Shown: positions 1 to 19,268 of the stretch, one piece after another
How positions within the stretch are numbered: position 1 is the first letter of the stretch
Layout: every line of letters starts with the position of its first letter
Virus record (IMG/VR): IMGVR_UViG_3300038673_000364
Location: 1 to 29,183 of that record
Reading direction: 5' to 3' (one strand)
Source: a virus
Taxonomy: Duplodnaviria; Caudoviricetes
Length of the DNA stretch: 29,183 nucleotides
Made by a program: the position numbers and the translations under genes
The notes under the pieces: generated by a model
What the model was told of the DNA's origin: nothing
The model's database searches: none
Seen by the model: only the letters and a program-made list of their open reading frames with translations

Positions 1-67
1 TGGTAATTGGGACAGCCCACCCAAATTCACCTTTGGAATTCAGTGCTAAATTCCTTCCGCCTATCTG
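1..67. repeat. Direct repeat of 1951-2017 (66/67 nt identical), start of a GGRNL cassette; truncated by the window edge
   Basis: tggtaattgggacagcccacccaaattcacctttggaattcagtgctaaattcct(t/g)ccgcctatctg occurs at 1 and at 1951. The offset of 1950 is in frame. Confidence 0.95.
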
Positions 68-2359
68 TAAATTATCAATAGCTCCTGTTATATTACTGTC
101 AACTTGAAGCTTTGTATAAGCATCAGTAATACCATATCCAGTAAGAGTAGTGGGTTTATTCTGTAAATCACTAAAGTTTCGTGTAGTTAGTTGATTTAAG
201 TTAGTAAAGTTGCCTGAATGATATATAGTATTATTATTAAACTTAATTGCAGCTTCTGTTAGATACAGTCCTACAGTTCCATTTCAAGGATCTATATTTG
301 TTGAATAAGGTAAAATTGTAATAGCTCCAGTACCAGTACCTCCTGTATTGTGTTGTCCAATTTGAGGGTCGTAAATATTTTGAGAAACACCTCCTTTATA
401 CCATTTTATAGCAGTAGTATAATTGCTAGTACTAGCTTGATTTTGAATAATACGTACATTGTTTGGAATAAATAAGTTTCCACTAAGCGTTCCACCAGCC
501 AATGGTAAATAATTATTTGGATTAAAATTGCCAGAATGCCAAACTTTATATGAATTATCTGTACAATATATTTCACCATCAATAATCATATTAAGTACTC
601 CGCCGCTGCTGCTATCATACTTAAAAGCTACTTCACCTTGTCCATTGTTAGATACAAACCCAAATTCTCTTATTCCGGGAACACTAGCACCAGTCCAGCT
701 TCCACCTACCGGTCTATATGTGCTACTATCTAAACTCCAAGTATCAGCACCTGTCCTCTTTAAGAAGCCAGTACCTGTTAGTGCAGCTATAGCAGTTAAA
801 TCACTATCTTTTGCTTGGAAGTTACTTGTTAATAAAGAATCTGAAGCAGATATACCATAACCAGTTAATGTTGTAGGTTTGTTTTTTATATAGGCATAGG
901 ATGTAGTGTCAGTAACACTCCAATCGCTTACTTGGTCTTCGGGTGCTGGCGAATCATCCCATCCTTTATTTCCTTCAACTAATTTTATATTTCTTATCGA
1001 GGCATAATTACCGATAATATTATTCTTAACTGATACTATAAGAAGATTTGCAGAACCAGCAACATAACCTCTCCAGTCACATACAAAATAACCTCTTTTC
1101 CATAATTCATTTGTGTTTTCTAAAATTCGATATGAATAACCGAATGCGTTCCTCCAATCTAACTTAACCATTCCTCCATCATGGTTTGTTTTATAGTCAA
1201 AACTAAATACATATTCTTTATTCTCAATAGGTTTAGAGAAAAAAGATTGTATAAATTGGTATCTGTATGCACGGCCATTATCGTTTGTTGTAGTTGTAGT
1301 AACGGTTATTTCTTTTTCACCTTTTGAATTTATTATTGAACTAACAGTTGACTCTGATGGATAATCTGCACCTATTAATGATATTGTTTGTCGATTTGCA
1401 ATCAAGTTCCTCCCGCCTATCTGGAGGTTATTTACTGCCGTTGTTAAATCACTCTGTAAAGCTACATTGGTATCCAATGCCCAAATATCAGTTCCTGTTC
1501 TTTTTAAGAATCCTGTACCTGTTAATGCAGCTATAGCAGTTAAATCATTATCTTTAGTCTGAAAGTTACTTGTCAATAAAGAGTCTGAAGCAGATATACC
1601 ATAACCAGTTAATGTTGTAGGTTTGTTTTTTATATAGGCATAGGATGTAGTGTCAGTAACACTCCAATCGCTTACTTGGTCTTCTGGTGCTGGTGTCCAG
1701 TCGGTTGATTTGTTGCCTTTTTCGAGTTTTACGTTTTTAACCGAATCAGCATTGTATATATGTGGGAAAATCTCGTGTCCTAAATAATCATTCTTTATAA
1801 ACGTGAAAGTTACGCTTTTTCTCCTCCATCCAGTTCCTGATGGGTCATAAGTTTTTGTTATACTATTGTTTATGAAAATAATTCCATTTACATTTCCTAT
1901 CACATCAAAAGATAAAGTATATGTATCACCGATATTTAAGGGTTCGGTAGTGGTAATTGGGACAGCCCACCCAAATTCACCTTTGGAATTCAGTGCTAAA
2001 TTCCTGCCGCCTATCTGGAGGTTATTAACAGCAGTAGTAATATCTCCAGGTGTGGCTATTCCAGCTTCAGTTAAAGTATTATTAATTCATTTACTACCAT
2101 CCCATTTAAGTATTTCTCCAGCAGTATTTCCAGTAATGGTCACATTAGAATGACTGTCTAATGTATGTGCAGATGGTGGAAACGTTGCTGGCTTACCTCC
2201 TATATAACCTCATAAAGTATCAAAGAAAGTATTATGAGTTCAGATTCTTTTAGTATCTTGAATAAATACTATAGATTTACTATCAATCAATCCATTGGCT
2301 AAGTCTGTATCGAATCTAGCTTGTGTAGCATAATTAAGAAATTTTGTCTTATAAGCCAT
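1..2359 (-). CDS. Modular tail fibre / receptor-binding protein (TGA=Trp; 3' end runs off the window)
   Basis: ATG at 2359 (MAYKTKFLNY...) is in frame with ORF 284..1903. Only TGA codons interrupt it (2240, 2210, 2087, 284), and the frame stays open to position 1. Contains repeated QIGGRNL...PAPED cassettes, NKPTTLTGYGI linkers, and YLPLAGGTLSG and WHSGN fibre motifs. Confidence 0.85.
750..1693. repeat. Two-copy ~200-nt direct repeat (750-949 / 1494-1693) with a 101-nt identical core (840-940 / 1584-1684)
   Basis: Both copies encode PAPEDQVSDWSVTDTTSYAYIKNKPTTLTGYGISASDSLLTSNFQ..D.DLTAIAALTGTGFLKRTG. The offset is 744 nt. Confidence 0.95.
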
Positions 2360-2373
2360 ATATTATAAAGTTA

Positions 2374-4368
2374 TTAAAAAGCATAGGTAACTGTACCATC
2401 AGTTGCTACTTCAGCTCATCCTATTTTAACTTCCTTACCTGTAGCGTCCCAATTGAATTCTTCTCCAAAAGTTAATATTTCAGTACCTATACTAGTAGCA
2501 GAAGATGCTCCAGGAGTCCTTAATTTAACATCTCTTCAAGTATCTATAGCTCCTAATGTAAGTACATCCCCAGTAACAGATAAAGTAATATTAGCACCCT
2601 GTTTAATGGTTTTACTAGGAGAAGTAGATGGTTTATAAGTCATTATAGTAGCATCATTTACATCTTTAAACAATAAATCATAGAATGAATAAGTTGTATT
2701 TAATGAACTTATAGTTACTACACCAGCTGCTTTAGTAAGTGTAACATTAGTCCCAGCTTTTATATCAACAGTTTTAGCTACACTACCATCATAAGTGTAT
2801 AAATTAGTTCCTTCTGTAGTTCCTGAATCAAATTTTAGAGTTAATGCAGTTGGATTGGGAAGAGAGCTTACAGATTCAAATCCTGTAATATGACCTTGTG
2901 CATCATATTTTATTTTTCCTAAAGTAAGAGTTGTAAGTGCAGTAATACTATTAGTATGCTCTACAGTAAATACATTAGAAGCTAAAGAAGCTTTTAATCC
3001 AGAAGTAAAGTTAATAGCATTATTTGTAGTTCCAGATGGTATATAACTACCTACTGAAGTTCCAGAATTATTTATACCTAAAGATTGAAGAACAGTACTT
3101 ACAGTAACTTTATTATTTGTCCCATCTCAATCTAATGAAATACCAGTACCACTATCCATTCTAAACGTTGTAGAGGATGAAGCAGAATATACTTCTGTAC
3201 CATTGATATTTATAGCTCTATAAACAGGATTAGCTCAAGCTGGAATACCACTTACTATTTTTAAAAATTGCCCCTCAGTTCCAGCATTAAGTGTTTTAAC
3301 TGTCTTAGTACCATCTCCAACTACTAGTTGATTTGCAGTTAAAGTACCAGAAGTTGTAACAGAACCATCTATATTAGTTTGTACAACAGTCCAGTCAGTA
3401 TTTATTACTGTAGAACCTGTAGCTGGGCCATCATTAATTGCTATTATTAAGTCACCTACTTCACAAGGATTGCCTGCATAAGTACCAGCAGTTATAACTT
3501 TATAAGTTCAACCAGCTTGATATCCATTAGTAGGAAGTGTTGTAACAGTTCCTCCAGTACCTATAGTACCTTTAAATACCATTGCATCATTTGCAGATAT
3601 TAAACCATTTACTGTATCCATTACTGTTTTAACAGCAAGTGGAGTAGCTGCAATACCTCCTGCTACCCCAGAAGTAGAAGTAGTAGAGTCTGATAATTTT
3701 AAGTGTCCAAGTACAGAATCACTACCTACTACACTAGTGTGTGATAAAGGAGCATATTTACTAGCTAAGTTAGTACCATTTTCTTGAATAGTAATGGCAC
3801 TAAACAATCCATTTGAAGGATTAAAAGTAATTTTAGAAGTTTTATATATAGCTTCTGTAGCAGTTGTTGAAGCTGCTGAACCTAATAAATAATGTGTAGT
3901 ATTAGTAGCATCAGCATTACTTGCAAGTACATTATTTAGTGTAGCAGTTCTGTTAGTTACAGAAGAGTAGTGTCCGTATGCACTGAAAGTTATTTGTGGA
4001 ACTACTATTGTAGTAGAACTATCAGCAGCAGGCCCAATTGTTTGGTTTGCAGCAAATGGTTTACTATGAGATAGTGTAGTTTCACCATCTGTAGTTGTAG
4101 CATTTATAATACTATCTCCAATTACTGATACAACACCTACATTAAAAGATGTTATAAGTTTGCTAGTAGCATCAGTTATAGTTATTGTGTTGTCAGTAAG
4201 TACTGAAGTAAATAATGGGTTTGCACTATCATTAAATAATTTAAAGTACTGCCCATGTGTTCAAAGATAACCATCTTCCATGAATACTATAGACCTCTGA
4301 ATGGCTGTCTTGTCTGGGAAAGCAGCTTCAAACCCTGCTTTAGTTTTTGAATAAATTAGTTTACTCAT
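2374..4368 (-). CDS. Tail/fibre structural protein, 664 aa (TGA=Trp)
   Basis: ATG 4368 (MSKLIYSKTKAGF) to TAA 2374, in frame with ORF 3508..3807. TGAs at 4261, 3508, 3235, 3127, 2536, 2416. Thr/Ser/Gly-rich, with a fibre-repeat-like LGHLKLSDSTTSTS..AATPLAVK segment. Confidence 0.8.
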
Positions 4369-4381
4369 TTATTAGAAATTG

Positions 4382-5587
4382 TTAATTAATATACTTCCAT
4401 CTAATAGATAAATTATTATTATCCACTAAGAAATCATCTGTAAATCTTAAGTTATCTGTTATATCAGTAAGTTGGTTATCCTGATTATATCCTTTTATAG
4501 AAACAGAACTGAAAACTAACTCTCCAGTTGTTACATCTATTCCACCACGTAATCCATTTTCTGTTCTTATTTGTAAGTTATCTGGTATAGCAGGTATTCC
4601 TATAATATCATTATTTACTTTAATACCATTTACTGTCTTATTATCTATTATCCCAATTAACTCATTTTTAACAGCATAAACCATATAAGGAGATGCTGCA
4701 ACACCATTAACAACACTTGCAGAGTTTATATCTGCATTATTGCTTGATGGCGCTGGTACCCCATTTAATTCGTCCTGAAGTTTAACATGTCCATATAGAT
4801 TTAGTGAAGCACCACCATATTCTGGTTCTTCAGATAAGTGTATTTTTGGATTAGCAGTACCAGTAATATCTCCTTCTATTGTGCCAATAATGTTACCATT
4901 AGTTACAACTAAATTACCAGATATAGAAGAATCTCCACCAGCATTTATACCACCATCTACCTCTAATCCATGAGTATCAGCATTGTAGGTTACTCCAATA
5001 GCTTTTCTAGTAGTATTAGTTTCTGTTAACTCATTATCAGAGTACCCAATTAATAAATTATAATTCCCAGTTAGAGCTGCATTACTAATCTGTTCTACAT
5101 AGTCTCTAATCTTTATATTTCTGTTTGTAACATCAGATATGTGTCCCCAGCTATTAACTATAAATCATGGTATAGTAATTAAGCTAGCATTGTCATGAGA
5201 AGATGTTTCACCATAAGATCCAGAAGTAATATTTGTATTTTCGTGTATTAATTTTTTGGCTACTGAGTCCCATCTTAAAGGATACTCTGTAGTTATAGAA
5301 GTTAATGCTGGACTAGAGAATATAATATCATTTCCAAGTCCTTTTCTTATTACTATATTATCTCCAGAAGCAGACATTGTAAAATTACTTTGCCCTATTT
5401 CTACATTAATAATATTATTTTCTTCTGTAACATATACTCCTGGAGAACCTATACTAAAATAATGACCTAGTATCCAAACTTCTCTTGTATCCTCAATAAA
5501 TACTAAAGGATTTAAGTTATCTGGAATATTAGGCAACTCTCTCTGAAAAGCAGCTTTTGTTTTAGCATAAATTATTTTGCTTTCCAT
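4382..5587 (-). CDS. Tail-associated structural protein, 401 aa (TGA=Trp)
   Basis: Joins ORFs 5165..5599 and 4382..4684 through one TGA at 5165. The N-terminus is paralogous to the two downstream genes. Contains YGHVKLQD and AASPYMV fibre-like motifs. Confidence 0.8.
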
Positions 5588-5591
5588 TTTT

Positions 5592-5948
5592 TTATTCAAT
5601 AATTTCTATATCAAGTAATTTATCTAATTTCATTAAAGCACTTGAAACATCATCATTTGTATTTATAAATATTCCAGAATTAGCTGCTTTTAAATCAATT
5701 GCAGTTAATACTGGGTTATCCTTTATTTTGTGTCCATTTATGGTACTATTATCCATGAAATCTTCTAACTCATCTATTCTGCCTAATAACTGATTAAGTG
5801 TATCTATAACAAATGCATTGTCTGTAAAAGTAACTCACTCAGTACCATTATAGAGTTTTATAGATAAATCATTATAAATTCATACATGATAAATTGTAGG
5901 AGGTTCTTCATTTCCTCTCCATATGTTAACTTGTCTATTGTTTATCAT
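5592..5948 (-). CDS. Hypothetical virion protein, 118 aa (TGA=Trp)
   Basis: MINNRQVNIWRGNEEPPTIYHV(W)IYND...YNGTE(W)VTF; two TGAs, ends in TAA. Fills the gap between neighbours and is missing from the ORF track. Confidence 0.75.
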
Positions 5949-7017
5949 AGGTAATATGTAATTGTCCTAATCCAGAATTCACTGTTCTGTATAGGTAGTA
6001 ATTAATTCCATTAATAACAGTCCCTCCGATATTTCTAAATCCACCTAATATATTATCTACAAAAAGTCTTGCATTCATATCATTAGGGATGTACAAATAT
6101 ACAAAATTATTAGCATTTGAATTTACTATTATTAAAGAATCTTTAGTTTTTGTCATAGATGCTACCACATCACTAGTACCATAGTAATAAGCATTTACTT
6201 TTTGAAAAGTAAGATACTTGTTATATCACTTATCATTTACTTTATAAGAGAAGTGTATTGAAAAGCTATTAGTTATATTATAAAAATTATACTCTCTAGC
6301 AAGAGGACTTAATAAAGAACCGTTAACATAAATTTCTTGTGGATTATTATAGAAGTCTCAAGATAAAGTTATTGTTTGAGGAGGATCATCTACAAACATG
6401 TAATCTTTATTTAATTTAAGCCATTTTAATGTATTATCTTCATTTATGGCTAATTTAGCATTAACTCATTTTGTAGAAGCAATTCTATCTGAATCATCCT
6501 CTATACTAGGTAATGTAGTTGTTGGTTCGCCTTCTAAGTGTGGGGAATATTTATCAACTTTTTGATCTAACCTATAATTAAGTTCTATAGCCCATTGTAC
6601 TAATAAATTATTAATAATTTCAGAATACATATTTACATATTCTATAAATTTATTAGTAATATAAGCATACAAATCTTGTTGATTCTCTATAGAGCCAGTG
6701 ATATTCCCCCACACTAAAGCATACTCTTCTGCTATCCCTAAATTATATCTAGCTTTGGCTCTTTGATAGTCGCTTACTAATTCAGAAAATAGATTTTCTA
6801 ATTTAAAATAACCCTCTTCTGATACATCACCATAGAACTTTTCTATACCACAAGACTCTAATAAAGCAAGCTCCTCATTATCTTTTGGTACTTTAGGTAT
6901 ATATTCTAATTGTGGAACTTCTACGTCTTCAATTATAGGTTCTTTTGGATTTAATAAATAAGAATTATCATCTATATTTATAAGAGAATCTTCTTGATTT
7001 AAGTCTATAAATTCCAT
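5935..7017 (-). CDS. Putative tail/virion protein, 360 aa (TGA=Trp)
   Basis: Joins ORFs 6466..7017 and 5935..6168 through three TGAs. Has a SPHLEGEPTT...RIASTK(W)V fibre-like motif and ends in TAG. Confidence 0.78.
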
Positions 7018-7018
7018 T

Positions 7019-7969
7019 CTATAATATTATTACTTGATAAGAATAGGTAATTGGATCTAAAAATGATAAAATTGTAGCATCATTCACTTTATGAATTGTC
7101 TTTGATATAGAAGTTGAGAAATCAGTATTTCCTATTGGAGATACTTTATTAGATATACTTCCCTCTGTATAAGCAACAGGTTCATGGAATAGATTATTGT
7201 AAGTATTTCATAGAAAATGAGAATTATAACATCCTCTTATAAAAGTATTATGCTTAAATTCCGCCTCAAATATATTATTATAAGTATCACCTATAAACAC
7301 ATTATTTCAACAATTTTCTTTTAAAACATTGTACTCACATAAAACTGTTTCTGAAGAATCTTCTACTACATCATTTTCTCTTATTGTTGAGAATGTAAAA
7401 AGATCTAAATAAGGACTAGCTATCTCTATAGTAGTATTTCTTAATTCTTCTCTAGTCCTTCTAAATTTTACATTCTTAAAATCATAGTATGCAGAATTAC
7501 CATTATTGTCTTTTAGTCAAGTAATTTTACCTTTAGTTTTAACACCGTCCTCAAGTGTTTCCTGTGTAATATCATATTCTACTTGTCAATCTTTACCTAC
7601 AATATAAGCTCTAGAATCTAACTTATTTACATCTAAAGCAGACACAAGCAATCTATATACTGGAGACGGGTTTATAGTAGAACCTCAAGTTTCTCTTATT
7701 GTACCTACATTTGAAGAATATATTGTTTGAAAGTCAGTAATTATATATTTTGCTCCTACTATTAAAGAATTTCTATTTATAGTTTCTAATAGTGTTAAAT
7801 ATGTTAATTCAATTGGAGCAGGTTGCCCATCTTCTCCTATATAATCTACAACTCCAATATTCCTTCTTAATTCTTTCTTCTCAAATTCTGTAAGTCCACT
7901 TAAAAGATCTGTCTTTTTAAAGTAATCTTTTAAATCAGATATACAAGCATATCTATTTTTCGGCAACAT
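7019..7969 (-). CDS. Putative virion protein, 316 aa (TGA=Trp), Asn/Phe-rich beta-helix-like C-terminal half
   Basis: Extends ORF 7685..7969 through five TGAs to TAG at 7019, one base before the next ATG. Confidence 0.75.
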
Positions 7970-7970
7970 A

Positions 7971-8153
7971 TTAATTATTTACTAAAAATTCATAAATAGG
8001 TTCTACATTATCTATATCATTTCATACTTGTACTAATGATATCATATGAAGTATCATACTGTAATCTTTATAATGACCATAAGATGCTTCATATAACCAC
8101 TCATCAAATCTATGTATGGTTTGTATTTTTAAATTAGTTACATCCGCAGCCAT
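7971..8153 (-). CDS. Hypothetical protein, 60 aa (one TGA=Trp)
   Basis: MAADVTNLKIQTIHRFDEWLYEASYG...VQV(W)NDIDNVEPIYEFLVNN*; fills the gap between neighbours. Confidence 0.65.
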
Positions 8154-8868
8154 TACTTGAAGGTTTTATATCAGTGCAAATAGTATTACACTTGTTTAAC
8201 TTTTCTAAAAATCTTTGTGCTTCATATAATTGTGCTGTATCCAAACAATACTTAATAACATTTATAAACATCCATATTAAATCTCTATCATTAACTTTTT
8301 TGTCTAAAGTTGTACTATTACAAGTAGGTAGATCTTTTAATATGTCTTTTACTAAAGTACTAAAACATTTATTTAAATAATACATTGCAAATGTATTCTT
8401 ATCTGACCTAATTATAGTATTTAATTCAGATGGAGCTTCATTATAAAATTCAGAAAATGGTACTTCTGTTGAACTATTCCCATTTCATAAGTATATTTTA
8501 CCATTATCATAAAAATATACTTTGTTATATAAATTAAAATTTTCTCCCAATCCTATTGCAAAATCTATTCATGTTTTTGTAGGTATTATTATGTGTGCAA
8601 TTCTATACAAACCATCTTTATCAAGTTGAAGCTCTGATCTATCTGCACAACATACTTCATGATTTACAAATTTATATTCTTTAAAAGTTTCTAAACCTTC
8701 AGAATTCAAATAAGATATTGTATTAATAGTAATAGAATGATCTCATCTATATGCTCTGTGACTTATAGTTACATTGTCTTCTGCTAAGTATTGCCCAGCA
8801 TCAGATTCTAATCCCTCTATTAATAAACCAAATTCTCCTAATTTTGATATTTTAAATGTTGCCTCCAT
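8134..8868 (-). CDS. Hypothetical virion protein, 244 aa, C-terminal GCGC (TGA=Trp)
   Basis: The ATG overlaps the portal stop (TAATG). Three TGAs; in frame with ORF 8134..8385. Confidence 0.78.
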
Positions 8869-11042
8869 TATATATTTTTTATTTCATTATTATTACTGTT
8901 ACTATCGTAAAGTTGAAGAACTTCAGCCTTAACTTGATTTTCTTTTACTTTTAGTTCTCTTTCTTTAAGATCTCTGTTTGTTCTAGCTTTATACCAAGCA
9001 ACTTCAGTTTCTTTATTTAATCTTTCTTTTTCAATATTTAACTTCTCTTGGTTAAGCTGTTGTACTTGAGATTGTAACTTTCTAATTTCTTCTTGAGCCC
9101 TCTGAACTTCTTTTGAAGCTGCCTCTAATTGTTGTTGCATTTGCATAGCTTCAATTGATTCTTCTCTTTTCTTTCTAATAGCATTAGTTACATCAGATTT
9201 CATTTTAGTAAGACTCTTAGAAGTTATAATATCTATAACAATTTCAGGATCAATATTATTATTCTTAGAGAATTCAAAACTCAATTGTTTCAACAGTTCA
9301 GAATCTTTTATCATTTCAGAAGTATCTGTAATATGTATATCAAAATCAGTCATTGTATAATATTCTGGTAAAGCTGTAAATACTTTGTTAAGTCTGTCAC
9401 CAAGTATAATAGTTCCTATAATTCCATCCTTAAACACGATTTTACACATATCTAATAGATCTAGTAATATTTCTCTGGTCACTAAATCCATCATATAAAA
9501 GAATTGTTTAGTTGTATAACTAGAATACCTTATACCAACTTGTACATTAGTTACAGCATCCCTTTGTTCTATACCTCCTAATTTTTCTCTAAATACTCCA
9601 GTAATTGCACTACAGGTATTTTCTATTCTTTCAAGAGCTAGATCCAAAGCTTGCATAGCCTGATAAGATATAGTATCATCATATCCTGCAAAAGTTGTAT
9701 TCATAGGTTGAGTTCCCTCTTGTGAAGAATCTATTAATGCAGTACCTTGCTTTTTATAAGCTTTTCATTTCATAACTTTTTCTGCAAGGTCAGTTCCTAA
9801 TACATTAGGAAGATATGCTAAATCAATCCAGTCTCCTTTAGTGCCAGATTCAGCTATTAAATTGTCTTTATAAAAGTTAATAACATCTCATTTATCCTGA
9901 AGATTTGCTGTTGCTAATATTAAAGAGAATGGATTACCATTTCTATCAGAGTAAAATACACCGTTTACTGACAAACCACATTTAGTAGGATTAGAAACAC
10001 TTCTAGTAACATTATTAACTTTACCCATTAAAATATATATACTATATCCTATTCTTATACCTCTATACCTATTTGTGATAAATTTACCATCTTCTTTATC
10101 TACTTGTAATCATTCAACATCATAAACTGGAAATCTCCTAAGTTTGAAATTAGAATTAAGATTATATAAAGGAGTTACTTCAAATCCACCTAATATACCT
10201 TCAGATGATGGGTCAGCTACTCCAACTATAGAATCTCCAAAACTTCTGACATATGTGGAATCATTATCAACATATAAACTAGTATCTAAAGAATCTATAT
10301 CTTCCTGAGTTAAAAGTTCTCCATAATTTTGAAGTATTTCATTCTTAGTCATATAATCCCTAATAACTACTCTTTGAGAATCTTTATGAAACTTAGAAGA
10401 GAAGTTTCTATCTAAGAAAGTATGTAATGGATTTAAAGCTTTTAAATCTACATTAGTTCCTTCTGCATTTTCTAGAGTTCTGTAATAACAGGTACCAGTA
10501 ATTAGAAGATCTGTTAATAGTAATCTTCCGTTATTTAAAAAATCTATATCTCTAGACTGCATAGCTCATTCAATAATATTTTGAGCAGCTATTTCATATT
10601 CAGATATATAATTACTTTCTAAAGATTTTTGCAACTCATCAAGTTCGGCAGATAATCTAGGATTATCACTATATTCTCCATTAATTATGCTTCTTATGTG
10701 TTCTTTTATTCTATCAGCTAATGCTTGATTAACATATTTCAACCTGTCCTGACTTATTTTAGACAGAGTCTCTTTGTCCTTACAAGATACTTTTGGTAAT
10801 ATAGGTATAGTTAGGTATTCTCCAACTAACACATCTATATGTTTCCTAACTAAAGGAACAAATTCAACAGATGTTGGAGTACCAATACCATAGTTTTCTT
10901 CTAAGTGCCTAAATTGTTCAGGATCTCTTCTTCCATGATAATAGTTATAAGCTTTTATTAGTTTAATTTTTTCATAAACTAATTCTGTTATAGCTCTATC
11001 TATCTCGTGTATGTATTCCTGTTCTTTTTCACTATATTTCAT
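8868..11042 (-). CDS. Portal protein, 724 aa (TGA=Trp)
   Basis: Three ORF-track fragments share one frame and join through TGAs at 10566, 10110, 9888 and 9765. Motifs AYNYYHG, ENYGIGTP and AITGVFREKLG, a coiled-coil C-terminus, and a position just after TerL fit a crAss-like portal. Confidence 0.88.
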
Positions 11043-11310
11043 ATTTTTTTAGATTTCCAGTCCTCCGAACTTGATAAAAATATATCTTCATATAATTTCT
11101 AGTTTTTAATTCTTCATATATATAAGAAAGAAATTCTTGAGGATCAGTTGTTTGTAAACTTATAGTTGTTGGCATCACATCATCTGGAATACCTAAGATT
11201 AGGGAGTAAACTCCATTATCATTAGTTACTTCTAATCTTCTATTATAAGTTGCTTTATATAAAGTCTTTATATAGTCACGAATCGTATTCTCTAATTCTT
11301 CTATTCGCAT
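11032..11310 (-). CDS. Hypothetical protein between terminase and portal, 92 aa
   Basis: Intact ORF with a TAG stop overlapping the portal start; contains no Trp. Confidence 0.75.
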   Translation of the reverse strand: MRIEELENTIRDYIKTLYKATYNRRLEVTNDNGVYSLILGIPDDVMPTTISLQTTDPQEFLSYIYEELKTRNYMKIYFYQVRRTGNLKKYEI

Positions 11311-13375
11311 CTTTTTCTCAGTCTGTTTTAGGTATTACCCCATAATGTCTATATCCATTACTATCTGTCCATCACCCAAAATCTCTAAAGTTTTTAGCTA
11401 CTTCCTGTCTTTCAACTGGAACTTTTGAAGATAACTCTTCATCTGCCAGTTCAGCCATAATCATAGCAGCAACAATATCAAACTCTCTTTTTCTTTCATC
11501 AGAGTATCCTAATAGTTGTTCTAACATTTCTCTAAATGTTATTGTATTAGCATAGTCTAAACAAAAATCATAGACAAGTTCTCTACCGTGATTTATAGTT
11601 TTTTCATTAGATGGTGCTCCATACATATTAGAATTAGACTTAGAAACATCAGATAGTGTAGCTCTAGGTCTCTTCATAAGCATGTACATATATTTTTTAT
11701 CTCTAAAATATGTAAGTAAGGCTGTTCTGGTAGATTCAAGAACTGCTTTTGCTCCATTATAATATGTTAGTAGTTTTGCTGCATTCTCGTAAGCTTCTCT
11801 AGGATCTTTTGGTCTATCCTTATACATAGCTACATATTGTGGAGGATTTAAACCAAATACTCTTTTCTTTATAAGAATACAGAAATCTGATAATTTGCTT
11901 TGTTCCAATGTTGCTGAATCTTTAGAACCTATATCTATAGAGTCTATACCTCCTACATATAAATTGTTAAATCCAGCCCCACTATCTCCTAATAAAGGAT
12001 GTTCTGCTATATATATATTACCATTTGGATCTTCTCTTCATAAAACTTTTCCAGTTCTTTCTCCTCTATTTTCTCCATCCTTATATGTTTCCCAAATTAA
12101 ATATCCTCTTTTAGGAGGATCTATAGTTTTATATATATCCAATGCAGTAAGCTGTTCTGTCAACTCTTCTCTTGGAAACATATTATCTTCCTTTTGAAGA
12201 AGTGCTTCTTCTATGGTAAAACAGAATTCAGTTTTATAGTTCATGAATTCTTTGGGATCTAAAGCTTTCTTTTCTCTTTCTTTATTATACCATTCTATAG
12301 CTTTATCCCTATTACAATATCCTCTGTTGTCAATTAAAGAATAGACAATTCTATATGCTGGAATAAACATTCCAGTAGTTTTATATGAGCCGTCAGCTGT
12401 GAAATTGTGTTTTACTGGGAGAAGATTAAAAGATTCTGGACTAGTAATCATATTTTTTAATCCTTCCATAGATCCAGCTTTAGATGAACCACCAGTACCA
12501 AAAGCTATTCGCATACCAACTCTTTTTCCACCTAACACAGTTATAAGAGCTTCTCCCTTCGTTCATTTCCTAGAAAGTTCTGGATCTGCTCCAGCCTCCT
12601 CATAGATTAACATTTGTACACGGTCACCTCTTAACTTATCTGGTTCATCTACGATTATTCCTTGTATTTCAGACATTCGTCCTATTTCAGCTGAATCTTT
12701 TGTTTTTTTAGAAGCTCTTTTATGAGTATTAGTATTTATTACCATTCTTACCCTTTTTAAAGCTCCTTCAGTATTTTCATTAAGTCAGTCTAATTGGTAT
12801 CATAGTTTTAATAGTGTTGGATCTAAGTGTTTTTTAGAATAAGCAGTAACTAATATCCTATAGTTAGGAATCATAGTATAGTGATTTACTGCTATAGCTG
12901 AAGCCATTTCTGAAAATCCAAGTCCCCTAGACTTTAATACTGCAACATCTTTACCTAACAACTGACACATTTCTATATAATGGAAATATTCATATTGAAA
13001 AACTAGAAAAGATGGAAAACCATAAGTTTGATTAATAGTATCTATCTCAGAAGTTTTTAGATTATAGAAATTTAAAAAGAAATAATTATCTCCTGTTATT
13101 TTATAACCATTCACTTCATAACCTTCTATACACCTCCTCATTCTTTCATCCCAGAATTCTTTATATTTTCTAGTTCCATATATTGTATTAGAATATCTTC
13201 CAGTGGATTGTTTCCTAATAGCATCTTCTCTAAATCAATCAGGATTAAAATCTAAACCTTCCTTGTCATTTATAGGTCTATACTTTGTCAAGAAATATGA
13301 TTTCTCTATATCAAAACAATCTATAGTATCGTTAGGCCCATAGTCTCAATACTGTCCTTCTATTATTGCTCCCAT
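11255..13375 (-). CDS. terL: Terminase large subunit, ~706 aa (TGA=Trp)
   Basis: Four ORF-track fragments lie in one frame. Walker A LKSRGLGFS, Walker B LIYEEAG, motif C FGTGG, nuclease YVGGIDSID and FDIVAA. TGAs at 13346, 13235, 12800, 12785, 12563, 12038, 11372, 11318, 11276. Confidence 0.93.
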
Positions 13376-13377
13376 AA

Positions 13378-13947
13378 CTAATCATAAAATCCTGGCTCTA
13401 CGTCACCTCGTAAAGTAGTTTCATTAGACAACCCCTCTTTAACTTCCTTCTCTAACTCATTAATAGAAATTATAAGATCTTTAGCACCCTTGATTTCAGC
13501 GATAATATCTTTAGTTTTAAATATAGGTTTACCATCTTTCCTTTCATTTACATCTACATTTTTTAGATAATAAATAACATTATCAATTGTAGTCATACAA
13601 GCTTTTAACAGTCTTATAGATTGATTTTTTTCTTGTAAGTCATTGTATTTATTACATGCTTCTATAAATAAAGGATCTTCTAATTCTTTATCTGTTAGTC
13701 CTGAATCTTCAATGGCTGCTAATCTTCTATCTTCTTCAGAAAACTTGAAATATGGACTTTCTCAGTCAAAATATAAGAACATAAATATGAATTCTTTTTG
13801 TGCTAGTTCTTGATTTTCTCCTGAAGGATCAGATTTTGTCTTATTCCTTTTAGGATTTAATAAAGCTCTGAATTCTTTTATTACTAATACTCGATCATCT
13901 AGGATTTCCACATTATTAGTTTCCCTATTAAATTTAAAATATTGCAT
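13378..13947 (-). CDS. Conserved crAss-like protein upstream of terL, 189 aa; candidate terminase small subunit (TGA=Trp)
   Basis: Joins 13762..13947 and 13378..13596 through FD(W)ESPY. Predicted helical and directly upstream of terL. The TerS call rests on position only. Confidence 0.6.
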
Positions 13948-13949
13948 AT

Positions 13950-15470
13950 TTATTTATTTTTACATCCACAAGAACAAACTTCAACTATTGTTCCTCCAGC
14001 TTCTTTCTTAAGAACAAGATCACAACCACACTTGCATTTTCTGTTCTTTTTACTTTTTAACTGTTTAAGCTTCATTCCCTTCTTAGCATATTCTACTTTC
14101 TCAGGAGTCTTAGACTTTATATATTCTTCTACAACAGTAGTAGGTGACTTTTTAAACTCTTCCCAGAATTCTGGAGAATCAACTTCACTTATAGCATCAA
14201 CTAAAAACCCAGCATACTCTTCCTTTATATTACCTTCATCATCTACTATATCTTCTTCATTTAATCCACTTGCTTTTAAGAGTTCTGCTGCAAAGTTTAC
14301 TATTAACTGTTCTCTATCTTCTGATTCATCATTCATATCTATAGTTCCACCTTCTTGTTTTTTACTAGCTAGTGAATCTAGCAATTTAAATTTATATTTA
14401 TACCTAGCTAAATCTTCTGGGCTAGTAACTCTATCTCCAGATGGCATAGTATATATAGTATCAGCTTTAGGTGTTAATGGGTTAACAATCTTTCTTTGGG
14501 AAGTTAGAGTTCCATTACCATATGGGATTTTTTTAACAATCTCTGAATAGATTGCATCTCCTCACGGTCTTCTATAAGAATAACCATATTCTTCAGAATT
14601 CAATTGTACTTTATTATCAGGTCTCATACCTAGTATGGCTTGAATAATATTTAATCTTGGAATAGAGCCTCCTTTTTTATAACTATTTATTCAATTTTTA
14701 TTAATACGTGATTCCCAATTAGTGCCTTTCTGATAAAAATTATTTGAAGCTGCAACATCATTAGATGGCATATAAGTATTAGTTGGTATAAAATACGTAT
14801 TCGGAGTTTTTTCAGAATAATTACTTGGAGGAGGAGGCACTAGTCCAAAATAATACCATATATTTTGTCTTGCGCCTCATCCATTAGGAGGTGTAAGATA
14901 ACTATTTGGAACACTCTTTTTATTATTTGTATTTACTATTCCAGTGGTAGTCTTAGTATTTTTTGTTGAAGACTTAGATTTAGATTCTGTAGATGTCTCT
15001 GCACTAGTATTACTAGAAGTATTATCTACAGGCTGTTGTAAAATAATATTTCGTATATTTTTTCACTCTTCTCATCCTCCAACAGGAGTAAAATATTTAT
15101 CTGAGCCACTTTGGTTATTACCTGAATCTGCTATTTCAGTAGTATATAGTTTTCCTTTATATTTAAAAGTTTTAAGACCACTCTGCCTAGCCTTTGAAAA
15201 AGCTTGTCCAAAAGAAAGATTATCAAGACTATTAATATCACTATTAAACTTATTAGTAACTGTACCTAAACTTGGAGTAGCAGCTGGTACCTGTATTTGA
15301 GAAAGTCTGTCTCTCCGTGCAGTCTCTTCTGCATCTTTTGCTATTGCATCTGAAATTTGAGCTTGCTGTGCACGTCATTCAGCCTGATTAGCCCTAGCTT
15401 CAGCCATTATTTGTTGTGGAGTCTTACCTCCTGGTTGAAATTTTTTTACTTTTTCTTTATTGTATTTCAT
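13950..15470 (-). CDS. Low-complexity putative internal virion/cargo protein, 506 aa (TGA=Trp)
   Basis: ATG 15470 is in frame with ORF 13950..14447; six TGAs. Recurrent xxxGG motifs (FQPGG, YKKGG, QEGG, EAGG), a SFGQAFSKARQSGLKTFKYKGKLYTT motif, and a C-terminal CKCGC...CSCGC. Confidence 0.72.
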
Positions 15471-15500
15471 ATTGATTAAGTTTACTCAGTTTGAGTAATA

Positions 15501-15707
15501 TTAAAGTTTAGTCAAGTCTTTGGTATTTCATATTGCCTCTTGCAATTCTCCATCTTTTGTAAATCATCTACATAATATACCCTGAAAATAAGGGTTTTCT
15601 TTAAAATATCTAGTTACTTTCTTAACTACCAACATAGTTGGTTTATTTGGCATATCCTTTTTTAATGTAACCAGATCTCCTGGCAAAAAATAAACTTTGT
15701 CTTCCAT
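15501..15707 (-). CDS. YodC/DUF2158-like small protein, 68 aa (two TGA=Trp)
   Basis: MEDKVYFLPGDLVTLKKDMPNKPTMLV...GIICR(W)FTKDGELQEAI(W)NTKDLTKL*. The family's CxWF Trp is encoded by TGA. Confidence 0.7.
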
Positions 15708-16261
15708 TACTTTATCCCCATCCTTATCTTTAAATCATTATTTATAATAGCTATAATCTGCGGCTCAGAAGTTACTAGATAGCCTAGATTCATAAAAGGG
15801 AGTGGATACACTGTTCTAGAATCATAGTACACATCATCTCCTATTTTTATATATTTAACATCTGGGCCAATTTCTACTACTTTAGCACAAGCAACTAGTT
15901 CTTTAGCTTGATCTATCTCTCCTGTATCAGTATTAAAGTATTTTCCGTTTGGTTCTATAAAAATACCAGTATCAGTTACTACTTTTACATAAGGATTAGA
16001 CGGATAAGGCATCAAAATTAACCTATTTCCATTAGGAATTAGTTCTAATCCTTCTAATCTTGCTTCAATTTCTTTTTGTTTTGCTAAGTGTGCTTCTTTT
16101 AATTTTTGTGCTAGCTCTTCAGCTTTCTTTTCTTCTTCTAATTTTCTAGCTTCAGCAGCTATTGGGTTAGTAGGAACTACTATATTTTTTGACATATTCC
16201 ATTTACCCCTAAGTTGATCTAATTCATTTCCCATAATTTCATTACCATTAATTGTTTTCAT
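15707..16261 (-). CDS. GroES/Cpn10-like co-chaperonin with N-terminal coiled-coil extension
   Basis: LIPNGNRLIL...TDTGIFI...AKVVEIGPDVKYIKIGDDVYY matches the Cpn10 pattern. Confidence 0.7.
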   Translation of the reverse strand: MKTINGNEIMGNELDQLRGKWNMSKNIVVPTNPIAAEARKLEEEKKAEELAQKLKEAHLAKQKEIEARLEGLELIPNGNRLILMPYPSNPYVKVVTDTGIFIEPNGKYFNTDTGEIDQAKELVACAKVVEIGPDVKYIKIGDDVYYDSRTVYPLPFMNLGYLVTSEPQIIAIINNDLKIRMGIK

Positions 16262-16309
16262 TATTAAAATCTCTATTTTTTTCTTACCTGAGTATAATAT
16301 TTATAACAT

Positions 16310-16582
16310 CTACCACTTTTTCAATGGACAATGAGCCTCAGGTACTCTTGTTTTTGCCATAATGCGGCAGTTACAACCATTTATATAACCATCTATCTGT
16401 ATAAGGGATAATTCTCCAGTTTTTGGATTTATCCATTTATGCTTATCACATATCTCTCCAAGTATCCTGTCTTTAGTTAATAATTTGCACTCTCTACAAA
16501 TCTTTATTCTTTCATTAAAGAGGTCTTGCTCTTGATTTAGTAACTCTTTAATATGTCCAGATATTATTTGATCCAGCCCCAT
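16310..16582 (-). CDS. Cys-rich putative Zn-binding protein, 90 aa
   Basis: RIKICREC...ICD...GCNC...AKTR...CPLKKW pattern. Confidence 0.75.
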   Translation of the reverse strand: MGLDQIISGHIKELLNQEQDLFNERIKICRECKLLTKDRILGEICDKHKWINPKTGELSLIQIDGYINGCNCRIMAKTRVPEAHCPLKKW

Positions 16583-17496
16583 TGTTTATTCCTCCTTTTA
16601 TAATCCTCATATGCTATTTCTTTTTTGTAAAAGGAAAGCATTCTTTCTACATCATCTTTTCTATACTCACATTTATAAACTGTTTTGTTGTCATTATGAT
16701 CATGATGCAACAAATACAATCCTGTAACCTTTAAATTAGGATTATTTTTTTCTATAATCCAAGCGTAAGTAGATAATTGAAGTTCATAATGATAGTAATT
16801 TACATCATCTAAATGATTTAAAGGATAAAGCATCTTTTCACTTTTCTTCTTTTTTCTATCAAAATAAGATTTAGTCTTTATTTCAGCATTTGATTTATAA
16901 TCCAATATGATAACTTCATTACCATTTACTATTATAAGATCTGCTTGTCCAGCTAATCTAAGAATACCATCATCAGATACTCTACTTAATAAAGCTTCTG
17001 GTAATACATAGTATCCTTCTTCAATTTTATTAGAAGTATTTACAGAAAATTTTCCACCATCTGAAAATATTGGTAAATTATATTCTTTTAAAGCAGAGTA
17101 ATCTCCTGCTAAAGTTTTAAGTTCATAATCTTTATGAATTTTTGTACCTCTTGCACAAGCTCTTTCTCTCTTATCTCTCCACTCTTCTAATATAGTATCT
17201 ACCTGATTATTAAATACTTCCTCATCAATACTTAAGTCTTTTAAAATATTCATATTAAATACTTTAGTTTTTAATAAATCAGATTTAATATATTTAAAAT
17301 CTTCTGGATTTACTAAAGTTTCTAAAGCTTTATACTTACTCCAAAAATATTCATCAAAAACAGAAAATTTATGAATCAAAGTTGTTACCGATATACACTT
17401 TTGAAGATCTCCTTTAGTCCAATATGTATGATTTTCATCATTATAACTTACTTCATCATTCTCTTTATCTACTTGAAGTTTTTCAAATTCTAACAT
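16564..17496 (-). CDS. PD-(D/E)XK (Cas4/RecB-like) nuclease
   Basis: SVTTLI, RGTKIH, AGQADLI, ILDYKS and YELQLSTYAW motifs. All six Trp codons are TGG. Confidence 0.88.
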   Translation of the reverse strand: MLEFEKLQVDKENDEVSYNDENHTYWTKGDLQKCISVTTLIHKFSVFDEYFWSKYKALETLVNPEDFKYIKSDLLKTKVFNMNILKDLSIDEEVFNNQVDTILEEWRDKRERACARGTKIHKDYELKTLAGDYSALKEYNLPIFSDGGKFSVNTSNKIEEGYYVLPEALLSRVSDDGILRLAGQADLIIVNGNEVIILDYKSNAEIKTKSYFDRKKKKSEKMLYPLNHLDDVNYYHYELQLSTYAWIIEKNNPNLKVTGLYLLHHDHNDNKTVYKCEYRKDDVERMLSFYKKEIAYEDYKRRNKQWGWIK

Positions 17497-17533
17497 AATT
17501 ACACTTATTTATTTCTACTACATGTAGTACATG

Positions 17534-17541
17534 CAAAATTA
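17534..17541 (-). promoter_or_regulatory. Bacteroidota-type -7 promoter element TAATTTTG
   Basis: Matches TAnnTTTG followed by CA. Intergenic, ~37 nt upstream of the nuclease ATG and just downstream of a terminator. Confidence 0.6.
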
Positions 17542-17576
17542 CAACTAATTTATAGAATAAATTATAAAATAGTGTT

Positions 17577-17629
17577 AAAATAAAAATAAGCATACTACTA
17601 ATAATCTCTATTAAAAGTAATATGCTTAT
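17577..17629 (-). terminator. Intrinsic terminator after phoH
   Basis: - strand ATAAGCATATTACT...AGTAGTATGCTTAT stem followed by TTTTATTTT. Confidence 0.65.
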
Positions 17630-17661
17630 ACAAAAAATTTATATTTAATTATTAGTATGTA

Positions 17662-18345
17662 CTATATCCCATTCTCTCGTAACTTTATAAGTATCTTTGG
17701 GATTATAGGATTTCTAACGCAATCTTCATCTGTAAATTCTATAGTTCCTACTAATGGATCATCCTTAAATATATCGAATATCTTTTCTAATGGAGAGTCT
17801 TCCATTTTCTTTCTATCTATTTGTTCAGTATCTCCCATTAGTATATACTTACTTTTGTTACCTATTCTAGTAATTAATGTTTTAAAAGTGTGAAAAGATA
17901 AATTCTGCACCTCATCAATAATAACAATACTATTGTCTATACTTATACCTCTAGCAAAAGCTATAGGAAGAACACTAATCAACTTTTTATCCATTAAAGA
18001 TTTAGCTGCACCTTCTCCACATAGTTTATCTATATTCCAAGTAAAACTCATAATATATGGATCTAATTTTTTAGATACATCTCCAGGTAATGCTCCCAAA
18101 TCTTCTTCTGGCACAACTGTTAAACTTTTAATAACTATAATTTGTTTATAATATCCACCAAGTAAATCAAGTGCTTTTGCTAAAGCTACATAAGTTTTTC
18201 CACTACCTGATGGCCCTTTACAGATAACTATTTCTTTTTTATCTATTAAATCAATAAAATCTTCTTGCTTTTTAGTTTTAGGTTGAAAATCTTTAACTAA
18301 TGACTCCTGATAATAACTAGGGAGTCTGTTCTTTTGTTTACCCAT
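17662..18345 (-). CDS. phoH: PhoH-like ATPase, 227 aa
   Basis: GPSGSGKT, LGALPGD, FARGISI, IIDEVQN, MGDTEQID and DCVRNPII. Likely start is ATG 18345, not the ORF-track start. Confidence 0.93.
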   Translation of the reverse strand: MGKQKNRLPSYYQESLVKDFQPKTKKQEDFIDLIDKKEIVICKGPSGSGKTYVALAKALDLLGGYYKQIIVIKSLTVVPEEDLGALPGDVSKKLDPYIMSFTWNIDKLCGEGAAKSLMDKKLISVLPIAFARGISIDNSIVIIDEVQNLSFHTFKTLITRIGNKSKYILMGDTEQIDRKKMEDSPLEKIFDIFKDDPLVGTIEFTDEDCVRNPIIPKILIKLRENGI

Positions 18346-18844: not shown

Positions 18845-18891
18845 GTTAATTATTTCTAAATACAATAGACACTGTTTTAATCTATTTCATG

Positions 18892-18962
18892 CACCTTCTA
18901 AGGGATTCAAACCCCTACTAATTGTTTTGAAGACAATTGTGCTGTCGTTACACTAAGAAGGC
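18892..18962 (-). tRNA. Opal-decoding tRNA, anticodon UCA (tRNA-Trp/Sup)
   Basis: GCCTTCT TA GTGT AACGACA GCAC A ATTGT CT-TCA-AA ACAAT TAGT AGGGG TTTGAAT CCCTT AGAAGGT G forms a full cloverleaf. Short variable loop, G73 discriminator, anticodon at 18928-18930, CCA not encoded. Confidence 0.93.
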
Positions 18963-19183: not shown

Positions 19184-19187
19184 ATTA

Positions 19188-19195: not shown

Positions 19196-19268
19196 TGAAA
19201 TTTATTTTTATTAATTTATTAAAATAATATTTTTAATAAAATAATTAATTAACTATACCCTTATTTGA

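Follow-up and report, generated by a model that had tools for sequence, protein, structure and literature searches.

We analysed a 29-kb stretch of phage DNA (29,183 nt, hereafter the window), which is a partial genome. Its minus strand carries 14 consecutive frames that are open in code 4 (positions 2-15707) and, upstream of them, a short leader, a tRNA and small genes, whereas the plus strand carries small early-type genes (Table 1). The AT-rich stretch between the two strands is likely a divergent promoter or origin region. Promoter scans of the window gave no excess over shuffled sequences, the second of them with a Bacteroidota motif. Three of the four TGA codons of the first tail gene lie within its first 91 codons. 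The N-terminal half of the 506-aa protein is strain-specific, and a closely related strain (L002) has a GIY-YIG endonuclease gene there. A Pfam search with the YodC-like protein gave no match.

Table 1. Features of the window, with profile matches and counts of in-frame TGA and TGG codons.
Feature	Positions	Strand	Remarks
Tail/fibre protein, open at window end	2..2359	-	phrog_1330 tail, E 2e-19; 4 TGA, 16 TGG
Tail fibre-repeat protein, 664 aa	2374..4368	-	PF03406; 6 TGA, 2 TGG
Paralogous tail-type protein, about 401-405 aa	4382..5599	-	1 TGA, 4 TGG
Late protein, 118 aa	5592..5948	-	2 TGA, 1 TGG
360-aa protein, weak tail fibre match	5935..7017	-	phrog_4209, E 8e-4; 3 TGA, 3 TGG
Late protein, 316 aa	7019..7969	-	5 TGA, 0 TGG
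Late protein, 60 aa	7971..8153	-	1 TGA, 1 TGG
Conserved 244-aa protein after portal	8134..8868	-	Counterpart of similar size at this place in Lera; 3 TGA, 1 TGG
Portal protein, 724 aa	8868..11042	-	phrog_6547, E 1e-52; 4 TGA, 2 TGG
92-aa protein, overlaps TerL end	11032..11310	-	No Trp codon
Terminase large subunit (TerL), 706 aa	11255..13375	-	phrog_6681, E 1e-72; 9 TGA, 4 TGG
Likely terminase small subunit	13378..13947	-	Position and size as in Lera; 1 TGA
506-aa protein	13950..15470	-	6 TGA, 3 TGG
YodC-like protein, 68 aa, first recoded gene	15501..15707	-	Name from the preliminary description; 2 TGA
TGA-free leader, four genes	15707..18345	-	0 TGA, 10 TGG
GroES-like chaperonin	15707-16261	-	Leader gene, 0 TGA
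90-aa protein	16310-16582	-	Leader gene, 0 TGA
PD-(D/E)XK exonuclease	16564-17496	-	Leader gene, 0 TGA
PhoH	17662-18345	-	Leader gene, 0 TGA
tRNA, anticodon UCA, 72 nt	18891..18962	-	ARAGORN; RF00005, 59 bits
Five small genes upstream of tRNA	18977..20101	-	Same strand as tRNA
AT-rich non-coding stretch, 15% GC	20102..21108		Coding strand and GC skew switch here
Small early-type genes	21109..29182	+	Same reading in both codes

A preliminary description of this DNA had counted about 47 in-frame TGA codons by hand, as the sole interruptions of 13 of the 14 genes. An exact count in code-4 translation gives 47 TGA and 37 TGG codons, with at least one TGA in every frame except 11032-11310. Reading through was said to produce tightly packed genes that end in TAA or TAG, and this is what we found: the intergenic gaps range from -56 to +30 nt and, of the 13 closed frames, nine stop at TAA and four at TAG, the remaining frame, the first, being open at the window end. 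The coding density comparison proposed there is equally clear, since open reading frames of at least 100 aa cover 44, 95 and 51% of positions 1-15707 in codes 11, 4 and 15, respectively. The corresponding values are 51, 51 and 60% in 15707-20100 and 48, 48 and 54% from 21100 to the end. Hence, the gain appears in code 4 with nothing comparable in code 15, and in 1-15707 but not elsewhere, which makes it specific for both TGA and this block.

The concentration of TGA in the block is not a chance effect: the four genes just upstream have 0 TGA against 10 TGG (Fisher exact test, p = 0.001) and the plus-strand genes 0 against 29 (p = 7e-9, with three doubtful or terminal TGA set aside). Recoding is limited to late genes. 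Early genes encode Trp almost exclusively by TGG (26 TGG in 17 genes) and translate the same in codes 4 and 11. The block had been presented as a recoded virion and packaging module. This is true of the packaging and tail genes, but not of the whole virion module: in a near-identical strain, 0 TGA and 15 TGG were counted in the capsid block. The 17 plus-strand early-type genes end in TAA (13), TAG (3) or TGA (1), the last lying 4 codons before a TAA, and the small gene at 19671-19829 has a TGA two codons ahead of a TAA, overlapping the start of the next gene. We rejected the idea that such TAA codons are backup stops behind TGA-ended early genes: the window has these 2 cases, but the distances in G016 and G017 are like those behind TAA.

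To assign a residue to TGA we scored the homologue columns of four outgroup phages that do not recode TGA. Of the 62 outgroup residues at TGA columns, 30 are W, 21 Y, 10 F and 1 N, so that 61 are aromatic, for a background of 1.3% W; Gly, Cys and Arg are absent from all 62. Such a check had been suggested earlier for TerL and portal, and its outcome favours Trp. At TGG columns the same phages have W in 36 of 50 cases, so that outgroup Trp is rarer at TGA (48%) than at TGG columns (72%). Among the matches listed (14 relatives), at least one has TGG at 19 of the 47 TGA sites; 22 of the 47 are kept as TGA in at least one relative, and six have either no aligned relative or a non-aromatic residue. 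Most relatives have F, Q, E or N at TerL codon 686, and TerL codon 700 is fixed by the overlapping gene. TGA and TGG also replace each other between strains, as in the polymorphisms at 9765 and 9828. Within the window, the three paralogous N-termini align as previously reported, with TGG, TGA and TGA at the Trp position, and the Trp of the YodC-like gene is encoded by a TGA at codon 48. Together, these comparisons support the reading of TGA as Trp in late genes. We detected no clear avoidance of stop contexts in the base following TGA (chi-square p between 0.04 and 0.15 in four genomes).

Could the host itself use code 4 (TGA = Trp) or code 25 (TGA = Gly), with the phage simply following it? 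Bioreactor and wastewater samples, where the phage or its relatives occur, can contain hosts with either code. Yet none of the 62 column residues is Gly, early genes use nearly only TGG, and sister clades either keep the standard code or recode TAG, which makes this very improbable. Code-25 phages of recoded hosts are described as carrying TGA in about 90% of their genes (bioRxiv 10.1101/2021.08.26.457843).

A crAss-like placement of this DNA is upheld by profile matches of TerL (phrog_6681) and portal (phrog_6547), to which the major capsid protein (MCP; phrog_11589) of the related record G001 can be added, and by named crAss-like relatives, to which TerL is 24-32% identical among the matches listed. 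It is 44-55% identical to TerL of gut genomes of 159-178 kb, whose tRNA order matches the zeta_14 and zeta_12 rows of published tables. The window and its relatives form a separate TerL clade (support 100/100) in a tree that is midpoint-rooted, without outgroup or labelled Zeta sequence; the link to Zeta rests on the tRNA-order fingerprints of G027/G028 and G030. Six related accessions are absent from the supplements of Yutin et al. 2021. Zeta genomes measure 145-192 kb, against 29 kb for the window, 59.6 kb for G001 (rated 32% complete) and 178 kb for the clade member G017 (rated 100% complete). A virion RNA polymerase block is a further trait of Zeta phages; G016 has very large late ORFs. 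Clade members come from bioreactor, wastewater and subsurface runs, not from human gut, and in at least one bioreactor run the phage reaches a very high abundance. The hosts expected for Zeta phages are Bacteroidota; contigs of the clade were binned in one Bacteroides MAG and one Lachnospiraceae MAG.

The tRNA at 18891-18962 heads the late strand, in a conserved place upstream of the TGA-free leader. It folds into a cloverleaf with a UCA loop, a 7-bp acceptor, a short variable loop and G73, and its CCA end is not encoded. The preliminary description did not list it. G73 and CCA are reported as major identity elements of E. coli tRNA-Trp (PMC2965240), and the gene is likely an opal suppressor tRNA-Trp. 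All 11 clade records that reach this place have a UCA tRNA on the late strand, upstream of terL; it is intact in nine (the window, L003, L005, L008, G005, G017, G018, G019 and L222) and interrupted in L002 and G036/L077. No UCA tRNA was seen in L009, whose sequence stops 8 kb upstream of terL. In the gut Zeta-type genomes G027, G029 and G030, the UCA tRNA sits on the early-strand tRNA side rather than heading the late strand. Searches for a phage release factor or tryptophanyl-tRNA synthetase (TrpRS) returned no RF-1 or tRNA-synt_1b match in five related records, one of them complete, with positive controls; this absence rests on relatives because the record of the window is itself only 29 kb long.

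ARAGORN labels this tRNA as SeC, because of the anticodon alone. A selenocysteine reading of TGA finds no Cys among the 62 column residues and a 72-nt tRNA whose 7-bp acceptor and short variable loop differ from the extended acceptor and long variable arm of tRNA-Sec. Decay or mis-sequencing of the genes fares no better: TerL and portal of 10 clade loci are interrupted by TGA, never by TAA, apart from a single TAG in L008 where TerL is aligned, and the TGA sites recur in strains from several studies. The homologue columns and the TGA-only interruptions refute these readings, to which we give practically no weight.

In strain L002, which is 94-98% identical to the window, the same tRNA is split after U34 by a 620-nt insert carrying a homing endonuclease, at the point between window positions 18930 and 18929. 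The window itself has no intron. The insert has a U at -1 and a terminal G, and its exons join to a tRNA (ARAGORN i(34,620)). With pairs chosen by eye, the core helices are fully paired (P1 5/5, P2 9/9, P3 7/7, P4 6/6, P7 5/5). The Rfam group I intron model did not match the insert at E<=1, but according to Williams 2020 (bioRxiv 10.1101/2020.01.27.920355) this model lacks bacterial seeds. We interpret the insert as a putative group I-type intron, predicted to be self-splicing. The same family splits the UCA tRNA of gut Zeta-type genomes. In intron mode, ARAGORN gives UCA at 23 of the 36 loci and a different anticodon at several; a second join is possible at some, and for L068, L072, L073, L091 and L092 we left the exon join undefined. 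Many copies show a second, CCA-bearing anticodon-like arm. A search of ten intron-bearing records with the phrog_6681 profile gave no match, as did its control.

Since the insertion is inside the anticodon, there is no UCA before splicing, and the intron might be a purpose-built gate for the code switch, the more so as copies lacking the endonuclease persist. This is unlikely: nine clade records, the window among them, combine an uninterrupted tRNA with the same recoding, most intron copies bear the endonuclease, and intron-plus and intron-free alleles share one run. In this run (X10) intron-free (joint at 3133) and endonuclease-less alleles occur together, whereas X5 has the full intron. Contigs of the RNA runs X15 and X17 leave the tRNA/intron site uncovered, and late-gene coverage in X15 consists of short pieces only. 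As the window has an intact tRNA and yet recodes the same genes, the intron of the sister strains would rather be a mobile passenger, which must splice for late expression but would not set the code. The idea that intact tRNAs are escape alleles, set apart from the intron alleles by their anticodon stem, is a lead at most: six of the seven distinct ones differ at pair 29-41, but the stem of G017 is that of L002.

The use of TGA is uneven among late genes. In the late block of the window, TGA makes up 56% of Trp codons while 79% of Lys, Glu and Gln codons end in A (p = 2e-6), and the direction is the same in all four other genomes. In G016, the capsid block has 0 TGA and 15 TGG against 145 and 106 in the remaining late genes (p = 4e-6), for a third-position A bias of 0.81 in MCP and also in TerL. 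MCP has 0 or 1 TGA in all 15 TGA-lineage records examined, where the counts of the lightly recoded G027/G028 carry little weight. In TAG lineages MCP has 1-2 TAG against 8-13 CAA/CAG (three records) and the chaperonin has no TAG (5/5). That capsid and chaperonin genes avoid the reassigned codon points to partial read-through. Alternatively for MCP, the preference for TGG could stem from decoding speed, given that UGG is read by two tRNAs, instead of from premature termination.

A rival reading is an adaptive timer or dose dial, which extends a model from the work of Borges et al. and of Pfennig et al. (bioRxiv 10.1101/2021.08.26.457843; 10.1101/2022.06.29.495998): late TGA codons would be selected, the tRNA would gate their timing, and protein amounts would depend on how many UGA a gene contains. 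The tRNA heads the late strand in 11/11 clade records, the chaperonin/YodC-like boundary of recoding is identical in TGA and TAG lineages, and the endolysin and likely holin of G001 use TGA only (TGA/TGG 2/0 and 1/0). But TGA is below the neutral A-ending expectation in 5/5 genomes, orthologues show no consistent gain of Trp, and the leader boundary drifts (the exonuclease has 5 TGA in L010 and 3 in G029). We regard selection for timing or dose as possible but doubtful, and as compatible, in the form of a second layer, with our preferred explanation. An enrichment in Trp after recoding was considered and rejected: TerL of the TGA clade contains 10-12 Trp, more than the 7-8 of three outgroups but fewer than the 13 of L030, and portal and other genes show no trend.

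We consider it probable that the window belongs to a Zeta-type crAss-like phage whose late packaging and tail TGA codons are read as Trp, partially, by its own UCA tRNA. The window would be the start of the late strand, and in-frame TGA at Trp positions would be decoded by the UCA tRNA, charged by host TrpRS and competing with host release factor 2. Transcription of the late unit would start with the tRNA, so that UGA read-through would set in as soon as late genes are transcribed; a hard switch would be unnecessary, because early genes read alike in both codes. With presumably partial read-through, TGA, favoured by the A-rich third-position bias, would accumulate in low-copy late genes (9 of the 13 Trp codons of TerL) and be excluded from major capsid and chaperonin genes. 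A more tentative version is a leaky dose dial using host enzymes only, in which UGA-rich genes are kept low and capsid is UGA-free, one small tRNA setting low terminase output without phage release factor or synthetase. In this version the suppressors of these phages would be hidden, not absent: the tRNA gene would be the dedicated homing site of the mobile group I intron family, and the second CCA arm present in many copies could aid recognition by host TrpRS.

That stop codons are reassigned in late genes of some Crassvirales was rightly given as known: Zeta phages with TGA = Trp late genes were published by Yutin et al. 2021 (PMC7886860) and for phage Lera (PMC12386605), and the window is a known phenomenon in a new clade. 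Lera has the same gene order (exonuclease, small gene, 555-bp chaperonin, small gene, variable gene, TerS, TerL, portal, tails), with genes of 729/735 bp and then 180/183 bp (Lera/window) between portal and tails. MCP, chaperonin and exonuclease are unsuppressed there too, but the portal is recoded in the window and not in Lera. The phages of Borges and Pfennig are likewise described with recoded structural and lysis genes, dual-coded early genes and, for CTA, a suppressor that opens the late strand at its 5' end; an avoidance of the reassigned codon by capsid genes was not found in the text searched, and the word 'capsid' does not occur in the main text of either paper. Codon avoidance in capsid and chaperonin genes under two codes predicts a measurable partial read-through, which would separate tolerated drift from a regulatory timer. 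Two Jade genomes have RF1 or TrpRS, in contrast with 0/5 relatives of the window. The peptide-level proof given in one study concerns TAG = Gln only (PMC9523058); none for TGA = Trp was found in the literature on recoded phages considered here.

The L002 insert resembles the class Leu.3Ug group I (IC3) introns of Williams 2020 in its insertion after the third anticodon-loop base, U at -1, terminal G and ORF-bearing and ORF-free forms, but sits in a phage opal suppressor, whereas that survey covered bacterial and archaeal genomes and its text names no Trp or UCA case (bioRxiv 10.1101/2020.01.27.920355). In Lak megaphages, also recoded, introns are reported in phage tRNA genes (Devoto et al. 2019, PMC6784885), but these are unclassified and in Tyr and Thr tRNAs, and the phages are TAG-recoded and encode RF2. 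The intron-encoded endonuclease belongs to PF11645, the family of I-Ssp6803I, a cyanobacterial tRNA intron enzyme. Intact, endonuclease-bearing and endonuclease-less alleles at one tRNA locus of near-identical strains provide a natural control for intron timing of the code switch. Supplementary Data 1 of Yutin et al. lists no suppressor in 38 of 39 TGA rows (PMC7886860), whereas that of the window is plainly visible, and code-4 genomes with a detected suppressor are given as few by Borges and Pfennig (35% and 3/17; bioRxiv 10.1101/2021.08.26.457843; 10.1101/2022.06.29.495998). As an intron hides the tRNA from standard searches, split tRNAs likely explain the missing suppressors of these 38 published Zeta genomes, and give a checkable answer to the suppressor gap in the three papers (1/39, 3/17 and 35% with a detected suppressor).

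The preliminary description had proposed that the late block on the - strand reads TGA as Trp. Across the 14 consecutive - strand frames of window 2-15707 we counted 47 in-frame TGA and 37 TGG, with at least one TGA in 13 frames, which matches its counts exactly. Each of the 13 closed frames is terminated by TAA or TAG, and the spacing between frames ranges from -56 to +30 nt. ORF coverage of the block is 44, 95 and 51% with codes 11 (standard), 4 (TGA as Trp) and 15 (TAG-recoded), respectively, and code 4 leaves it unchanged in the rest of the window. The read-through products of the terminase large subunit (TerL) and portal genes match phrog_6681 (E 1e-72) and phrog_6547 (E 1e-52), and further ones match tail families.

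A TerL search returned 52 viral loci using three codes: ten (L001-L010) with 7-12 TGA each, 33 standard-code, eight TAG-recoded and a short fragment in which TGA occurs once. Residues were compared with four outgroup representatives (L011, L026, L030, L051). At the window's TGA columns (n = 62) these carry W 30 times, Y 21, F 10 and N once, against a background W frequency of 1.3%, as anticipated for Trp; at its TGG columns W occurs in 36 of 50. Gly or Sec is excluded by these columns, which hold W, Y, F and N only. Both codons swap freely within the clade of TGA-recoded Zeta-type crAss-like relatives (across six loci, 30 TGG at TGA columns and 45 TGA at TGG columns), and SNPs flip TGA/TGG at two portal sites (sequencing runs X6 and X12). 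Six of the 47 TGA sites are unsupported; most of these fall within 13950-15470, in its strain-specific half. Judging from these alignments, the window's late block almost certainly reads TGA as Trp; the proposed recoding is real and had been correctly read.

Several other features of the window deserve mention. The 506-aa protein at 13950-15470 has four copies of a short lysine-aromatic-x-x-GG-like motif, possibly protease cleavage sites, and a Cys-rich C-terminal tail. It has about 260 N-terminal residues (14690-15470) more than its counterpart in L002, a locus of genome record G001 that is 94-98% identical in nucleotides to the window over the main aligned blocks. In L002 this place is taken by a gene for a GIY-YIG endonuclease (7814-8659), which contains one TGA, and PhoH is preceded by a D12-class adenine methyltransferase, which the window lacks. 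TGA codons of the variable tail gene (window 2-2359; L058:14205-17258) are concentrated in the conserved N-terminus and, in G001, also in the last 140 codons; Trp codons of the swapped middle are almost all TGG, as if it were a recent gain from a standard-code donor. Among the early genes, a DUF805b RNA motif (Rfam) lies between two genes at 21994-22029 (+), with 51 bits, above the gathering score. The switch in coding strand and GC skew falls in a 1-kb segment (20102-21108) that has 15% GC, contains short repeated motifs and differs among strains.

The preliminary description overlooked the putative decoder, a late-strand UCA tRNA with G73 and an ordinary cloverleaf fold. In E. coli, tRNA-Trp identity depends chiefly on G73 and the CCA anticodon (PMC2965240). 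All 11 clade records that extend far enough upstream of terL carry a UCA tRNA there, on the terL strand, and in two of them it is split; this count leaves out six records ending earlier, plus L009. Five related records yielded neither a release factor nor a synthetase of the Trp/Tyr type. The four TGA-free genes between the tRNA and the recoded block hold 0 TGA and 10 TGG, and early genes barely use TGA. On this genomic evidence, the UCA tRNA is very probably the decoder of TGA.

The tRNAs of the window and L002 have A19-U56 in place of the usual G19-C56 tertiary pair, and the T loops of those of L005 and L060 have A54/U58; these look like compensatory tertiary changes. UCA tRNAs of 93-96 nt have a further stem-loop within their variable region, of which the CCA loop is kept and the stem varies. 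This arm, found in many intron-split UCA tRNAs and in intact ones of G005, G017 and L222, is missing from the window tRNA; it could help TrpRS recognition. TGA-recoded G017 (24197-24271) and G028 (148.3 kb) also encode a CUA (amber) tRNA, for which Lera, a published Zeta phage with late-gene TGA recoding, provides a precedent (PMC12386605).

Coordinates of putative suppressor tRNA genes and of the TGA-free capsid block
Feature	Location	Strand	Remark
tRNA, anticodon UCA, 72 nt	window 18891-18962	- (late strand)	
Two-arm UCA tRNA	L060:4830-4925	-	
Two-arm UCA tRNA	G017:161242-161337	-	gene intact
Two-arm UCA tRNA	L222:460-552		gene intact
Two-arm UCA tRNAs	L063, L071, L078-L081, L086, L089		
Split UCA tRNA with group I-type intron	L002:3101-3792 (G001)		
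Capsid block without TGA inside recoded late strand	L057:11257-17264 (G001) and relatives		

The L002 tRNA is interrupted after U34 by 620 nt with a terminal G, which encode a PF11645 endonuclease (PD-(D/E)XK) and show pairings for P1-P4 and P7. Rfam makes no intron call on this insert, and the split gene is missed by default ARAGORN and by the Rfam tRNA model. Run X5 contains the full intron allele within one contig, X10 an intact tRNA allele together with an ORF-less intron allele, and X6 an insert at the same tRNA site. A core-motif scan found 13 viral loci, 10 of which join to a UCA tRNA at U34, and an endonuclease scan found 23, of which 20 do so (21 after a further ARAGORN check); the scans have two records in common and include many near-duplicates. 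Code 4 raises coverage in all six examined intron records with a resolved join, and eight of ten endonuclease records examined have a same-family TerL with 3-11 TGA. The gene encoding the UCA tRNA is a probable homing site for this intron family. ARAGORN in intron mode reports a second split UCA tRNA at G029:56053-56916 (-), with a 775-nt insert at position 38, a possible miscall.

All 39 TGA rows of Yutin Supplementary Data 1 (PMC7886860) are Zeta, and a suppressor is listed in one, a zeta_14 genome, where Sup stands between Leu and His. The tRNA order of G027 nearly equals this row. The intron likely explains many of the 38 missing suppressors, because the split UCA gene of G027 holds the place of Sup between Leu and His; this reading comes from related records.

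Recoding is uneven. In the near-identical strains G001 and G016, the scaffold-MCP-first ring-type gene block has 0 TGA and 15 TGG, against 145 TGA and 106 TGG in other late genes (p=4e-6), with the same third-position A bias (0.81) in the major capsid protein (MCP) and TerL genes. MCP is a high-copy protein. Its gene has 0 or 1 TGA versus 6-9 TGG in 15 of 15 TGA-lineage records examined, several being near-duplicates, and 1-2 TAG versus 8-13 CAA/CAG in three TAG-lineage records, in which TAG makes up ~40% of Gln codons of TerL and portal. Reassigned codons are absent from the chaperonin in every matching record of either lineage, and TGA use is below the A-ending expectation in five of five genomes. 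Exceptions exist: the exonuclease of L010 and G029 contains TGA. In the Lera table, MCP, chaperonin and exonuclease are unsuppressed (PMC12386605). The unevenness rather likely reflects partial read-through with host RF2 competing, although slower decoding at TGA may be an alternative source. Recoding looks costly. Our narrow literature search found no account of capsid genes avoiding a reassigned codon; bioRxiv supplements may bear on this.

Starting from the observed codons, residues, tRNA, tRNA position and allele polymorphism, we propose that late transcription would first give the UCA tRNA, which host enzymes would trim, extend by CCA and aminoacylate with Trp. The charged tRNA would then decode UGA, competing with RF2. 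A-biased mutation would load low-copy late genes with TGA, high-demand genes being kept clear. An adaptive timer, as discussed by Borges et al. (bioRxiv 10.1101/2021.08.26.457843), may act as a second layer.

TerL shares 24-32% identity with the named crAss-like phages among the matches listed; with unclassified gut phages the value is 45%. All 14 TGA-bearing TerL rows group in a single clade (support 100/100), of which G017, rated complete, spans 178 kb. Putative Zeta membership of the window is based on synteny and tRNA-order fingerprints. Of the matching runs, the 14 rows that contain at least half of the words, two of which may be the window's own source, come with the labels bioreactor, wastewater, subsurface, soil and activated sludge. 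In run X3, summed contig depth over window 9500-21200 reaches tens of thousands, and many variants coexist; this very abundant and diverse population suits proteomics.

TGA recoding itself belongs to an already known phenomenon. What is added here is a visible decoder, an intron polymorphism among near-identical strains and the pattern of capsid avoidance. We found nothing in the literature on an intron-split opal suppressor tRNA of such phages: the introns covered by Williams 2020 (bioRxiv 10.1101/2020.01.27.920355) occupy the same site class, but in bacterial tRNA-Leu, and Devoto 2019 (PMC6784885) concerns different phage tRNA introns. The arrangement given by Pfennig et al. (bioRxiv 10.1101/2022.06.29.495998), a suppressor at the late strand 5' end and dual-coded early genes, is the same here, and the gene order and gene sizes of Lera in PMC12386605 agree with those of the window.
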